From Escherichia coli (GTDB taxonomy: Bacteria; Pseudomonadota; Gammaproteobacteria; Enterobacterales; Enterobacteriaceae), in assembly GCF_001677475.2 (NCBI RefSeq), contig NZ_CP015229.1: a stretch of 64,000 nucleotides of DNA; one strand, 5' to 3'. Below are positions 44,043-49,876 of the stretch, piece after piece. A program made the translations under genes and the position numbers. The notes beneath the pieces were generated by a model. That model saw only the letters and a program-made list of their open reading frames with translations. It had not been told where the DNA came from and did no database searches. Position 1 is the first letter of the stretch. The number at the start of each line of letters is the position of its first letter.

Positions 44043-44501
44043 ATGACAATCACGGACCTGGTACTGATTCTTTTCATCGCCGCACTCCTGGCCTTCGCGA
44101 TCTACGATCAGTTCATCATGCCCCGCCGTAACGGCCCCACTCTGCTGGCAATTCCTTTGCTCCGGCGTGGTCGCATCGATAGCGTTATATTCGTCGGATT
44201 GATTGTCATTCTTATCTATAACAACGTCACGAATCATGGCGCGCTAATAACAACATGGTTATTAAGTGCACTGGCTCTGATGGGTTTTTATATATTCTGG
44301 ATCCGCGTTCCGAAGATCATCTTTAAACAAAAAGGTTTTTTCTTCGCCAATGTCTGGATTGAATATAGCCGAATCAAAGCGATGAACTTGTCGGAAGATG
44401 GCGTGTTGGTGATGCAATTAGAACAGCGTCGGCTGTTAATCCGCGTTCGAAATATCGACGATCTAGAAAAAATTTATAAGCTTCTCGTTTCAACTCAATA
44501 A
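44043..44501 (+). CDS. yobD: UPF0266 membrane protein YobD
   Basis: ORF 44043..44501, 152 aa. Confidence 0.8.
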
Positions 44502-44513
44502 GTTATGAATTTA

Positions 44514-44566
44514 GCCAAAGCTATGTTTAGTGTATTTTTAATAATCAGACATAGCTTAGGCTATAT
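44514..44566 (+). promoter_or_regulatory. Putative MntR operator(s) of the mntP promoter
   Basis: aaagctatgttt and acatagcttaggctata resemble the MntR palindrome AACATAGC-N-GCTATGTT as I recall it. Confidence 0.35.
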
Positions 44567-44665
44567 TACCTCTTCCCTTATTTGTTATTTATTTTAACGT
44601 TTCATTGATATATAAATCTAAATGAAAATCGTTATCAATAAAGCAATGAAATAATATATTCCAAC

Positions 44666-44673
44666 AGTTGTTT
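44666..44673. repeat. Left copy of 8-bp target-site duplication AGTTGTTT flanking the IS
   Basis: Identical 8-mer immediately outside both IS ends (44666-44673 and 47082-47089). Confidence 0.6.
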
Positions 44674-44765
44674 ATGAGACGACAATAACTCAGTCCGCCT
44701 GGCGCCGATTATTCTGGCCGGTTTTGTAACCTGAGTGTCATTTACATGATCCAACAGGAAATGGC

Positions 44766-46265
44766 GTGACGCTCAATACTTCTCAGGTCAGTTACTATAT
44801 GACTCAGCGTAAGAAAGGTATAACTCAGCATATCTCGGCCATGAAGGCTGGTATCTCAGTCCGTTCTGGTCGTCGGATCGAAAAAGGAGAGTGGGCAAAA
44901 AACAGTGTTCGGCACTGGCGCACACGCAAAGATCCTCTGGAAGCTGTGTGGGACAGCATGCTTGTTCCTCTGTTGAAAGAGAGGCCGGCTCTGACACCAA
45001 CAACTCTACTGGAGATGCTACAGGATAAATATCCCGGCCAGTACCCCAACAGCCTTCGAAGAACAATGCAACGGCGGGTTCGCGAATGGAAACTACAGTA
45101 TGGTACAGAGCAGGAGGTCATGTTCCGCCAGCAACATCAGCCCGGCCTGCGAGGCCTGTCGGACTTTACTGAACTGAAAGGTGTAGTTGTCACCATCGCC
45201 GGTAAGTTGTTGGCGCATAAGTTGTATCACTTCCGTCTGGAATGGAGCCACTGGAGCTGGATGCGGGTTGTTCTGGGTGGTGAGAGCTTCTCTGCTCTGG
45301 CTGAAGGCCTGCAGGAAGCCCTCGGACAACTGGGCGGAGTGCCGGTAGAACATAAAACGGACAGCCTGAGGGCAGCATGGAAACAACAGGGCGAAGATGG
45401 ACGCCGCGAGCTGACTGAGCGTTATGCTACTCTCTGTCAGCACTACGGAATGCAGGGCGTACACAATAATGCCGGTCGGGGCCACGAAAATGGCTCGGTT
45501 GAAAGTGCCCACGGACATCTGAAAAGGCGTATCTGTCAGGCGCTGATACTGCGGGGCAGTAACGACTTCAGCACCATAGAAGAATATCAGGCCTTCATCA
45601 CTCAGCAGGTTATGCGGCACAACCGTAACAATCAGGATCTGGTCAAGGAAGAACGTCTTCATCTGAAACCGCTGCCGCTTCGTCGCAGTGCTGACTATGA
45701 TGAGCTGACTGTGAGGGTTAGTCGCAGCAGTACCATCAATGTGAAGCACGTCGTCTACAGCGTACCTTCCCGGCTTGTAGGTCAACTGTTACGGGTCAGG
45801 TTATGGGACGATCGTCTGAGCTGTTACGTTGGCAGCAGCGAGGTCATGAGCTGCCCTCGCGTCAGACCAGAAAAAGGGAAGACGCGGGCCCGTCGTATCG
45901 ACTTCCGACATGTGATCGACAGTCTGGCAAAAAAGCCCGGTGCGTTCTGCCATGCAACGCTGAGAAATGACATCCTGCCGGACGATGAATGGCGGAGGCT
46001 GTGGCGTCGCTTATGTAATCATCTGGAGCCCGATATGGCAGGAAGGCTGATGGTACATGCCCTGAAACTGGCTGCAGGATACGACGATATCTCAGTCGTG
46101 GCAAAAGGTATGGAGCAGATGCTGAATACCCCGGGAAACGTGGATCTGCACCGGCTGATGCGCTTCCTGGGTATAAAAGAAAAGGCGTTGCCGGTAGTCA
46201 ATGTGATACAGCATAACCTGAGCAGTTATGAGCAACTACTGCGTGGCAAGGGAGGTTCGCAGTGA
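44766..46265 (+). CDS. istA: IS21-family transposase IstA
   Basis: ORF 44766..46265, 499 aa; N-terminal HTH-like region; start may be GTG 44766 or ATG 44799; stop overlaps istB start (GTGA). Confidence 0.85.
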   Translation: MTLNTSQVSYYMTQRKKGITQHISAMKAGISVRSGRRIEKGEWAKNSVRHWRTRKDPLEAVWDSMLVPLLKERPALTPTTLLEMLQDKYPGQYPNSLRRTMQRRVREWKLQYGTEQEVMFRQQHQPGLRGLSDFTELKGVVVTIAGKLLAHKLYHFRLEWSHWSWMRVVLGGESFSALAEGLQEALGQLGGVPVEHKTDSLRAAWKQQGEDGRRELTERYATLCQHYGMQGVHNNAGRGHENGSVESAHGHLKRRICQALILRGSNDFSTIEEYQAFITQQVMRHNRNNQDLVKEERLHLKPLPLRRSADYDELTVRVSRSSTINVKHVVYSVPSRLVGQLLRVRLWDDRLSCYVGSSEVMSCPRVRPEKGKTRARRIDFRHVIDSLAKKPGAFCHATLRNDILPDDEWRRLWRRLCNHLEPDMAGRLMVHALKLAAGYDDISVVAKGMEQMLNTPGNVDLHRLMRFLGIKEKALPVVNVIQHNLSSYEQLLRGKGGSQ

Positions 46266-47017
46266 GCAATATCCATCACCTTGAACATAGCCTGCGTAAA
46301 CTACGCCTGACACGAGTTGGAGCTGAATGGCACGCTCTGGAAAAACGAGCGCTGGCAGAAGGCTGGACACCATCGCGCTATCTTCTGACGCTATGCAATG
46401 AAGAACTCCTGTGGCGCGAGAGTGAAAAACTGCGTCGTTATAAAAAGGAGGCCCGGTTGCCAGTTGCCAAAACGCTGAGCGAATACGACTTCAGTCAGGT
46501 GCCGGAACTGAATGGAGCTCAGTTCCGGCAACTCTGTGAAACGACAGACTGGGTTGATGCAGGAGAAAACGTTCTGCTGTTCGGAGCCAGCGGGTTGGGG
46601 AAAAGCCATCTGGCGGCAGCGATCGTGGATGGCGTAGTAGGTCAGGGCTACCGGGCCCGGTTCTACAGCGCAGGAGAGCTGTTGCAGGAACTACGTAAAG
46701 CCAGAGCTCAGTTGAAACTGAATGAGCTGCTACTGAAACTGGATCGCTACCGGGTGATAGTGGTGGATGATCTTGGCTATGTCAAACGCGATAGTGCCGA
46801 AACGGGTGTGCTGTTCGAGTTAATAGCGCATCGCTATGAACGTGGGAGCCTGGTGATAACCAGTAACCATCCGTTCAGCATGTGGGGCAGCATCTTCGTG
46901 GATGAGACTATGGCGGTGGCTGCGGCAGACAGGCTGCTCCATCACGGATATATGTTCGAACTGAAAGGGGAAAGCTACAGGAAAAAGACAGCGAAGGCAG
47001 TAACAAGCGCGACTTGA
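46262..47017 (+). CDS. istB: IS21-family helper ATPase IstB (AAA+/DnaC-like)
   Basis: ORF 46262..47017, 251 aa; Walker A GASGLGKSHLA; Walker B VVDDLGY. Confidence 0.85.
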   Translation: MSNIHHLEHSLRKLRLTRVGAEWHALEKRALAEGWTPSRYLLTLCNEELLWRESEKLRRYKKEARLPVAKTLSEYDFSQVPELNGAQFRQLCETTDWVDAGENVLLFGASGLGKSHLAAAIVDGVVGQGYRARFYSAGELLQELRKARAQLKLNELLLKLDRYRVIVVDDLGYVKRDSAETGVLFELIAHRYERGSLVITSNHPFSMWGSIFVDETMAVAAADRLLHHGYMFELKGESYRKKTAKAVTSAT

Positions 47018-47081
47018 TGTCGCCCTGAAGGGTGCGGCCAGTATAGTTGGCGCGAGTCGGCAAAACTAGTTGACGTCTAAT

Positions 47082-47089
47082 AGTTGTTT
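47082..47089. repeat. Right copy of 8-bp target-site duplication AGTTGTTT
   Basis: See left copy. Confidence 0.6.
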
Positions 47090-47111
47090 TATATTCTCAA
47101 AATATGTTAAG

Positions 47112-47240
47112 GTTGCGCCCTCATTTGGGGAGTAGCCGATTTCCAGATTCCGGAAATGTACGTGTCAACATACTCGTTGCAAAACGTGGCACGTACGGAC
47201 TGAACACTTTCAGTCAGGCGAGACCATATGCACATCAATC
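47112..47240 (+). promoter_or_regulatory. yybP-ykoY-type Mn(2+) riboswitch aptamer in mntP 5' leader
   Basis: Conserved elements ttggggagtagc ... gtcaacatac ... ggcgagaccatatg upstream of mntP; boundaries approximate. Confidence 0.6.
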
Positions 47241-47346
47241 GCTATGCCTGCATGAACGCGAAAACCCGTCGCGGCTTGTTGTTCATGTATGCATGTTTGC
47301 TGGGGGCGATGATGTGTTTTATGGATACCCCGGTCAGGACGTTGTC

Positions 47347-47913
47347 ATGAATATCACTGCTACTGTTCTTCTTGCGTTTGGTATGTCGATGGATGCATTT
47401 GCTGCATCAATCGGTAAAGGTGCCACCCTCCATAAACCGAAATTTTCTGAAGCATTGCGAACCGGCCTTATTTTTGGTGCCGTCGAAACCCTGACACCGC
47501 TGATCGGCTGGGGAATGGGCATGTTAGCCAGCCGGTTTGTCCTTGAATGGAATCACTGGATTGCGTTTGTGCTGCTGATATTCCTCGGCGGGCGAATGAT
47601 TATTGAGGGTTTTCGTGGCGCAGATGATGAAGATGAAGAGCCGCGCCGTCGGCACGGTTTCTGGCTACTGGTAACCACCGCGATTGCCACCAGCCTGGAT
47701 GCCATGGCTGTGGGTGTTGGTCTTGCTTTCCTTCAGGTCAACATTATCGCGACCGCATTGGCCATTGGTTGTGCAACCTTGATTATGTCGACATTAGGGA
47801 TGATGGTTGGTCGCTTTATCGGCTCAATTATTGGGAAAAAAGCGGAAATTCTCGGCGGGCTAGTGCTGATCGGCATCGGCGTCCAGATCCTCTGGACGCA
47901 CTTCCACGGTTAA
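47347..47913 (+). CDS. mntP: Mn(2+) efflux pump MntP
   Basis: ORF track gives 47104..47913, but start set at ATG 47347 ([18 protein letters not shown]), 188 aa; the upstream in-frame stretch covers the riboswitch leader and is not coding. Confidence 0.9.
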
Positions 47914-48719: not shown

Positions 48720-48812
48720 GACAACTCCGGCAGGATACTAAAGGCCGCAAGTGTAACGCGAATCACGCGGCGGGCAAATATCCGAACGCCAGGAGCGAAG
48801 ATAAAGCAAAGT

Positions 48813-48840
48813 AAAAAGCCTCGCATTCGACGAGGCTTTA
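48813..48840 (-). terminator. Rho-independent terminator after cspC
   Basis: Minus strand: aaagcctcgtcgaatgcgaggc followed by U5. Confidence 0.55.
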
Positions 48841-48884
48841 TAGCGAGATTGAAGCGTATTCACACTTCAGATCAGTGGATTCGA

Positions 48885-49094
48885 TCAGATAGCTGTTACG
48901 TTAACAGCTGCCGGACCTTTCTGGCCGTCCTGAATTTCGAACTCAACGTTCTGACCTTCAGCCAGAGTTTTGAAGCCATTACCCTGGATAGCGGAGAAGT
49001 GTACGAACACGTCTTTGCTGCCATCAGCCGGAGTAATGAAGCCAAAACCTTTAGACTCGTTGAACCACTTAACCTGACCTTTAATCTTTGCCAT
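48885..49094 (-). CDS. cspC: Cold-shock-domain protein CspC
   Basis: ORF 48885..49094, 69 aa; [23 protein letters not shown] motifs. Confidence 0.95.
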
Positions 49095-49107
49095 TTGAAA
49101 AATTCCT

Positions 49108-49251
49108 TAGATTGTTTTCTTCGCCCGCAGGCATAACATAGATAAAACTGACACATTACTGCATGAGGCACCAATATAAGGCTCGGCAGAGAAGCGGTAT
49201 TCAACGTCAACGTGTTTACTCAGGACTTCTTTACTGAAAATGCCACACATA
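49108..49251 (-). CDS. yobF: Small protein YobF (47 aa), upstream of and probably co-transcribed with cspC
   Basis: Manual translation of minus strand: [47 protein letters not shown]. Confidence 0.7.
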
Positions 49252-49876
49252 AACAGAACTGTACCTCGTTTAACCCGAAATCTGTTATCACATACAACGT
49301 TAATTATGGCAAGCCATTTTTAAACATGTCTCGATCAGACGCACAAATCTCGATACGTCTTCCACTTTTTTTGCACACTTATGCAACGGAATACGCGCCG
49401 ATATATCATTGTGCTTAACCTTGCCAGTTCAGGCAGATACTTAAACTGACGTATTTTCTAACATAGTTCAATAAGTTCAGTTGTTCCAGGCCAGTAGGAG
49501 AAGTTATTACATAGTGCGTGCAATATCACATTTTCTGCTATGCAATGAATAAAAAGTTATATCACTTTTTCTCATAAAACAGTCAGTTAACGGCCACCAA
49601 TTACCCCAAAGAGAAGTCAATCCCCAATGGTATTGTAAATTTAAAATAAGAAAAATTGATGAATGCGCAAAAAAATCAAGAGAGAAACGTTTCGCTAATA
49701 AATAATACCACGCTTAATCACAAATCCGATGTAAACATCCTAATAAATTAATGGGCTAAATATCTTTTTCTGATATCTCGTTACGCAAATAAATAATATG
49801 ATAATTATTTGAAGTCAGACCAGAGTTTTAATTTGAAGCAGTTGCACCATGACAGTGCGTATAATCAGGATGAATT

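Follow-up and report, generated by a model that had tools for sequence, protein, structure and literature searches.

The chromosomal stretch analysed here raises the question of which promoter drives mntP when an insertion sequence ends directly in front of the gene, and how much of the manganese-dependent control of mntP is retained. The initial annotation of the window, i.e., of the whole 64-kb stretch of E. coli DNA under study, noted an outward-facing TTGACG hexamer at the right end of the element, and considered that mntP transcription may now depend on it if the native -35 element was displaced. We followed up this proposal by defining the element, the native promoter and the upstream control sites, and by weighing the promoters that could serve the gene.

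An intact ISEc10 copy in the yobD-mntP intergenic region

Alignment with the K-12 sequence revealed a clean insertion into the otherwise continuous yobD-mntP intergenic region. The inserted element comprises 2410 bp (positions 44673-47082, + strand) and is oriented like mntP. It harbors an intact istA gene (44766-46265, +) encoding an IS21-family transposase of 499 amino acids (NCBIfam NF033546, 226 bits, cut-off 160), and an intact istB gene (46262-47017, +) encoding the IS21 helper AAA+ ATPase of 251 amino acids (Pfam PF01695, 209 bits; NCBIfam NF038214, 267 bits, cut-off 200), the reading frames of which overlap at positions 46262-46265. The IstA protein differs from the annotated ISEc10 IstA in 2-4 residues. 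The 2408-bp core of the element is matched over its full length in 525 E. coli genomes, where the 30 best matches listed show an identity of 98.5-99.8%; the RefSeq annotation likewise reads ISEc10 family. The terminal inverted repeats are 48 nucleotides in length and 71% complementary. Moreover, the element is flanked by a 6-bp target-site duplication, GTTGTT (44667-44672 and 47083-47088), which is present as a single copy in the uninterrupted K-12 sequence, and the right copy overlaps the native -35 hexamer of mntP. The element thus combines the istA-istB overlap, the terminal inverted repeats and the duplication of 4-8 bp that characterize the IS21 family with near-identity to annotated ISEc10, and is an intact ISEc10 copy inserted into GTTGTT.

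The exact termini were derived from a comparison of seven ISEc10 copies, in all of which a T precedes ATGAGACG and an A follows CGTCTAAT. Because these termini are invariant in every copy compared, the element was assigned to positions 44673-47082. When the same end definition is applied to the six other copies, their duplications measure 5-7 bp. An alternative delineation, in which a 2408-bp element is flanked by the 8-bp duplication AGTTGTTT, was dropped, since the six other copies show the T...A termini and duplications of 5-7 bp; the apparent 8-bp repeat consists of the 6-bp duplication and two chance matches. The right terminus given in the initial annotation is thereby corrected to position 47082, and what had been described as the last 11 nucleotides of the element is a tail of 13 nucleotides, TTGACGTCTAATA. 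The + strand reads ...GGCAAAACTAGTTGACGTCTAATA up to the junction and GTTGTTTTATATTCTCAAAATATGTTAAGGTTGCGCCCTCATTTGGGGAGTAGCC... beyond it.

The junction between the element and mntP was found in none of 5426 complete E. coli genomes, and it was likewise absent from 80 species-representative loci and from metagenome contigs. The yobD-mntP region is uninterrupted in 5421 of the 5422 E. coli genomes having the region, and the single exception is a deletion, not an insertion. In this genome, E. coli B1172 (NZ_CP120549.1, 2271181-2271424), the match starts at the equivalent of window position 47138, and the matched stretch carries the annotation of a manZ-type PTS IID gene; the deletion appears to have taken out yobD and the promoter together with the initial portion of the aptamer. 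The chromosome flanking the element is 98.5-99.0% identical to K-12, with a best complete-genome identity of 99.1% over 10 kb. The intact state of istA, istB and mntP fits a recent or tolerated event and proves neither. No relevant report of an IS insertion at mntP emerged from a search of the literature. Insertion of such an element in front of a gene is a familiar kind of event, to which the present case adds an example in an uncommon location. Elsewhere in the window, an Rfam match to the cspA thermoregulator (135.7 bits, 48810-49270, - strand) covers the cspC region downstream of rlmA, which presumably reflects the paralogy of cspA and cspC and not a demonstrated cspC thermosensor.

The retained core promoter and the outward-facing end of the element

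The native promoter was delineated by means of 80 mntP loci from species-representative genomes, 76 of which were anchored on the aptamer core GGGGAGTAG. In these 76 Enterobacteriaceae loci conservation sets in sharply at TTGTTT and continues through TATATTCTCAAAATATGTTAAGGTTGCGCC into the aptamer, while the bases directly upstream vary. The first bases of this conserved block, TTGTTT (47084-47089, +), were taken as the native -35 hexamer. They are followed after 18 bp by the -10 candidate TAAGGT (47108-47113, +), which overlaps with the alternative -10 candidate TATGTT (47103-47108, +). Across genera, T1, A2 and T6 of TAAGGT are invariant, and positions 3 and 4 are variable (TAATGT, TATGGT), a pattern as would be expected of a -10 hexamer; TAAGGT and TATGTT are treated here as alternative candidates. 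Positions 47084-47120 are the same as in K-12 and fit the consensus of at least 80% of the 76 loci except at positions 47096-47097, which agree with the majority only at a level of at least 50%. A leader length of 225 nucleotides would place the transcription start at position 47121. The primers in the supplement of PMC11647493, in which +1 corresponds to GCCCTCATTTGGGG and +20 to CCGATTTCC, place +1 at G47117. Thus, the native start zone comprises positions 47117-47121 (+).

The terminus of ISEc10 at position 47082 lies one base upstream of this conserved block, and the native core promoter is therefore intact. Among the three bases upstream of the duplication, there is one change when compared to the native sequence (ACA to ATA). 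The core promoter (TTGTTT ... TAAGGT), the leader, the riboswitch and mntP are hence untouched by the insertion. The supposition that the native -35 element had been displaced does not hold, as TTGTTT is fully kept on the mntP side of the element.

The TTGACG hexamer is situated in the right inverted repeat (47070-47075, +), 7 nucleotides from the right terminus of ISEc10, and faces mntP. Its outward orientation had been recognized correctly in the initial annotation, while its coordinates shift by one base to the left from 47071-47076. The hexamer is invariant in all seven ISEc10 copies. Moreover, the four copies that were compared over the 45 bases ending in ...AGTTGACGTCTAAT show no difference there, and the terminal 14 bases do not vary in any of the seven copies. 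TTGACG is therefore a fixed property of the insertion sequence, not of the mntP locus. That IS21-family right ends carry an outward -35-like hexamer, as had been proposed, is borne out by published work (PMC9330008): abutting ends of IS21-family elements form a strong junction promoter with the -35 element in the right end, and hybrid promoters arise from an element end together with flanking DNA, as for ISKpn7 with blaKPC and ISBf1 with cepA. In a head-to-tail ISEc10 junction modelled with a gap of 1-3 bp, TTGACG would be positioned 16-18 bp from GACAAT of the left end, providing a model for an ISEc10 junction promoter; head-to-tail tandems of ISEc10 were found in none of the 5426 genomes.

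At the mntP locus, a -10-like hexamer, TATTCT (47092-47097, +), is located in the chromosomal DNA 16 bp past TTGACG. It was found by a consensus scan and by a weight matrix, and so fills the place for which the initial annotation had seen no convincing -10 hexamer at ideal spacing. A hexamer such as TTGACG, matching the consensus in 5 of 6 positions, has little meaning by itself. In the consensus scan, however, positions 46900-47400 contain a single sigma-70-like match, TTGACG-16 bp-TATTCT, where 0.4 matches are expected. In addition, approximately 640,000 candidates on both strands of the 64-kb window were scored with a rough weight matrix of hexamer frequencies. By this measure, the hybrid combination reaches 11.9 bits, as compared to 6.5 bits for TTGTTT-18-TAAGGT and 3.6 bits for the TATGTT alternative, and it is among the 10 best of the approximately 640,000 candidates. 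TATTCT itself matches the -10 consensus in only 4 of 6 positions, with a spacer of 16 bp and without an extended -10 motif. How readily such a match arises by chance was estimated by inserting the element end in silico at every position of the window: an equally good or better -10 partner is found at 3.5% of all sites and at 11% of AT-rich sites. The coincidence of TTGACG and TATTCT is thus unremarkable and carries no sign of selection.

From the usual distance between -10 and +1, transcription from the hybrid promoter is predicted to start near A47104 (47103-47105), i.e., 13-17 nucleotides upstream of the native start. The native spacer contains the hybrid -10 hexamer, while the hybrid spacer contains the native -35 hexamer. 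An outward -35 element in the terminal repeat, a -10 hexamer at 16 bp and a co-oriented mntP gene on the + strand, with no terminator-like site on that strand before the leader, provide the sequence features of a hybrid promoter. This lends partial support to the hybrid promoter, which appears geometrically sound and better than had been thought initially. It is plausible but unproven, and need not be selected or even active. The arrangement resembles the (IS21)2 junction, ISKpn7 and ISBf1 in that an outward -35 element in the right repeat is combined with a -10 element from beyond the end. In contrast to these cases, however, the -10 partner sits here in another, retained promoter, and not upstream of a silent gene.

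As to the effects of ISEc10 on neighbouring genes, overproduction of AmpC is reported for an insertion of the same element in the chromosomal ampC promoter or attenuator (Haldorsen et al. 2008, as cited in PMC7482066). Unlike in the ampC case, ISEc10 insertions in the promoter regions of lpp and afa lowered expression: with the element upstream of lpp, expression fell 6-10 fold, and the activity of the afa promoter was reduced.

We also observed that the 18-bp native spacer (47090-47107) is largely as conserved among Enterobacteriaceae as the hexamers, with conservation falling below 80% at just four positions (47092 and 47095-47097), and that it contains an inverted repeat, ATATT-N5-AATAT (47091-47105), within which the hybrid -10 hexamer TATTCT is situated. 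The conserved spacer together with the inverted repeat may point to a protein-binding site that covers the core promoter and has so far escaped notice.

Upstream control sites and the leader riboswitch

In the uninterrupted locus, the core promoter is preceded by sites for regulators of mntP. Using the mntH MntR box as a reference, two candidate MntR boxes were located at positions 44507-44528 and 44547-44568, each matching in 17 of 22 positions and together forming an inverted pair. A Fur-like box, CTAAATGAAAATCGTTATC (44618-44636), matches the Fur consensus in 14 of 19 positions. Natively, the MntR boxes would be found approximately 145 and 185 bp, and the Fur-like box approximately 65-85 bp, upstream of +1. 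When the 230 nucleotides upstream were aligned with MAFFT for 21 genera or species, four conserved blocks emerged, namely two ATAGC-N4-GCTAT palindromes, a TTAACG block and AAATGAAAATCGTTATCA, the latter being nearly invariant across genera. These blocks are contained in a tract with a GC content of 25-28% (44450-44700). In the present locus the MntR boxes and the Fur-like box remain to the left of the element and are shifted 2416 bp further from the core promoter, so that no MntR or Fur site is placed within approximately 200 bp upstream of it, though the boxes exist.

MntR and manganese-loaded Fur bind to the mntP promoter and relieve repression by H-NS, as summarized in PMC8632737 with reference to Dambach et al. 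2015, and induction of the mntP mRNA by manganese requires MntR (PMC11647493). Given these roles and the displacement of the boxes by 2416 bp, uncoupled initiation would therefore be the most consequential effect of the insertion. When compared to the native E. coli mntP gene with its control by MntR, Fur, riboswitch and Rho, no regulatory box is missing, and the leader, the aptamer and the coding sequence share 98.5% identity with K-12; however, a distance of 2.4 kb now separates the boxes from the core promoter.

Whether the net level of mntP goes up or down is not readable from the sequence. Activation of bgl by IS1 or IS5 provides a precedent, in which the element comes to lie between the promoter and the sites for H-NS silencing or for regulators further upstream. 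As in bgl, the insertion is located between an AT-rich regulatory tract and the core promoter, which itself is untouched. In contrast to bgl, mntP is parted not only from the presumed H-NS tract but also from activator (counter-silencer) sites, and because both are displaced the sign of the effect is unpredictable from sequence.

On the far side of the element, a sigma-70-like site, TTATCA-17 bp-TATATT (44632-44660, +), scores 10.8 bits with the same matrix and overlaps the Fur-like box. Natively, transcription from this site would start approximately 38 bp upstream of the mntP +1, and it now aims into the left end of the element and istA. Transcription of the transposase gene might thus be fed by a Fur-overlapped chromosomal promoter at 44632-44660.

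Downstream of the core promoter, the yybP-ykoY Mn2+ riboswitch aptamer of the mntP leader is matched at positions 47119-47215 (+; RF00080, 41.9 bits, E = 5e-10). The score is below the gathering score of 45, and a default Rfam scan misses the region. Compared with the mntP leader of K-12, the riboswitch of which has been validated by experiment, the aptamer carries a single base difference. The start of the riboswitch leader had been placed at about 47115-47125, in agreement with both the aptamer match from 47119 and the +1 of the published construct at G47117. The mntP coding sequence (47347-47913, +), which was aligned with K-12 mntP, is intact and encodes 188 amino acids (Pfam PF02659, 187 bits).

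Also in the leader, we noticed a terminator-like hairpin, CGCGA-N7-TCGCG followed by GCTTGTTGTT (47257-47273, +). It arises from three differences to K-12, namely the insertion of a C and the replacement of A by G at two positions. A reading of these changes as compensatory mutations was dropped, as the apical loop of the long leader hairpin is hypervariable between species, and they are probably neutral. In many RefSeq E. coli genomes, a 'hypothetical protein' is annotated in the interval from yobD to mntP. A candidate for it is an ATG open reading frame of 40 codons in the leader (47228-47350, +), which overlaps with the start codon of mntP.

The consequences of the two start positions for the aptamer were modelled by folding RNAs up to position 47225 with ViennaRNA, a thermodynamic treatment that ignores tertiary structure, manganese binding and co-transcriptional folding. 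For RNAs starting at 47117 or 47121, the GCC:GGC helix that closes the aptamer forms with a probability of 0.93, and for RNAs starting at 47104 or further upstream this probability is 0.00. In the longer RNAs an alternative hairpin is predicted, in which GGUUGC (47111-47116) pairs with GUAGCC (47132-47137) around an inner CCCU:GGGG stem (-14.4 kcal/mol). With longer 3' windows the fold predictions for the native start are themselves unstable, and we give low weight to the prediction that a leader extended by 13-17 nucleotides sequesters the conserved GGGGAGUAGCC of the aptamer. Deletion of nucleotides +1 to +19 abolishes the manganese response of the leader (PMC11647493), and sequestration of +11 to +21 could plausibly lead to the same loss. 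The complementary motifs, GGTTGC directly before the native start and GTAGCC in the aptamer core, are both conserved in the majority of the Enterobacteriaceae loci that were compared. Transcripts that initiate upstream of the normal +1 are predicted to sequester the aptamer core, which may explain why the start position is constrained.

Competing accounts of mntP transcription

Taken together, we favour an account in which ISEc10 uncouples initiation at mntP, the native core promoter and the hybrid promoter overlap, and a hybrid leader may blunt the sensing of manganese; as a whole, we give this account roughly even chances. Initiation would now be largely uncoupled from MntR and Fur and would proceed from two overlapping and mutually exclusive promoters approximately 14-16 bp apart, the native one starting at 47117-47121 and the hybrid one at about 47104. 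The hybrid promoter would likely contribute, because its TTGACG -35 element is far nearer to the consensus. Control by the riboswitch and by Rho in the leader would persist for transcripts from the native start, and the 13-17 extra nucleotides of transcripts from the hybrid start, which are predicted to pair with GUAGCC, may blunt manganese sensing in these molecules. A more far-reaching version of this account, in which an initiation blind to MntR and Fur is combined with a dominant hybrid start, GGUUGC locks GGGGAGUAGCC and the riboswitch becomes blind to manganese, so that the allele would be doubly uncoupled, appears unlikely to us.

The strongest competitor, possible though on the unlikely side, is that the retained native core is the sole relevant start (47117-47121) and is used at its unactivated level, with TTGACG as a bystander and riboswitch control fully intact. 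The level of mntP could then be low, as activation is lost, or raised, as the AT-rich H-NS-binding tract is 2.4 kb off. It agrees with this reading that the core block conserved in the 76 loci is wholly present, that merely a single base of the three upstream of the duplication is altered, that AT-rich DNA often yields an equally good hybrid match by chance (11% of sites), and that lpp and afa were not activated by an upstream ISEc10. However, the native hexamers are weak, scoring at most 6.5 bits as compared to 11.9 bits for the hybrid, and the native promoter normally needs help by MntR or Fur. Moreover, the hybrid overlaps the native -35 hexamer and spacer, and competition for RNA polymerase would be expected from a better -35 element located 14 bp further upstream.

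The preferred account of two overlapping promoters also has to be set against read-through, i.e., expression of mntP mainly from istAB transcripts or from another promoter within the element. The genes istAB and mntP are co-directional, and no terminator-like hairpin was found on the + strand between the istB stop codon (47017) and the leader. Nevertheless, transcription of istA in IS21-type elements is kept low unless a tandem junction forms (PMC9330008), and the consensus scan did not reveal a complete outward promoter in the last 180 bp of the element. Read-through transcripts would further carry 330 nucleotides of untranslated RNA, including the Rho-target leader (PMC11647493), and should be terminated, and they are predicted to misfold the aptamer. 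We consequently regard this route as very unlikely.

Least of all do we credit the reading of the initial annotation, in which mntP has lost its -35 element and depends on TTGACG together with a native -10 hexamer, a dependence that the anatomy does not imply: TTGACG is real and outward-facing, but its distances of 27 bp to TATGTT and 32 bp to TAAGGT are far outside the range of 15-19 bp and rule out this pairing, the native TTGTTT is retained intact, and the conservation pattern argues against a true native -35 element upstream of position 47083.

That an outward -35 element in the end of an insertion sequence rewires a neighbouring gene is textbook knowledge, and the mechanism considered here is not new. 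The present case is the only interruption of the yobD-mntP control region by inserted DNA seen against 5422 E. coli genomes with the region. For annotation, the lesson is that regulation of mntP by MntR should not be assumed at this locus. If the doubly uncoupled version were true, the position of the native start just past the conserved GGTTGC would be a functional requirement of the riboswitch. The insertion cleanly separates three layers of mntP control, namely the MntR/Fur/H-NS module further upstream, the core promoter, and the riboswitch in the leader. If the source strain is available, it would offer a natural test of how much regulation of the manganese exporter the riboswitch alone gives, and of whether a yybP-ykoY aptamer is disabled when its RNA is extended by a few nucleotides at the 5' end.
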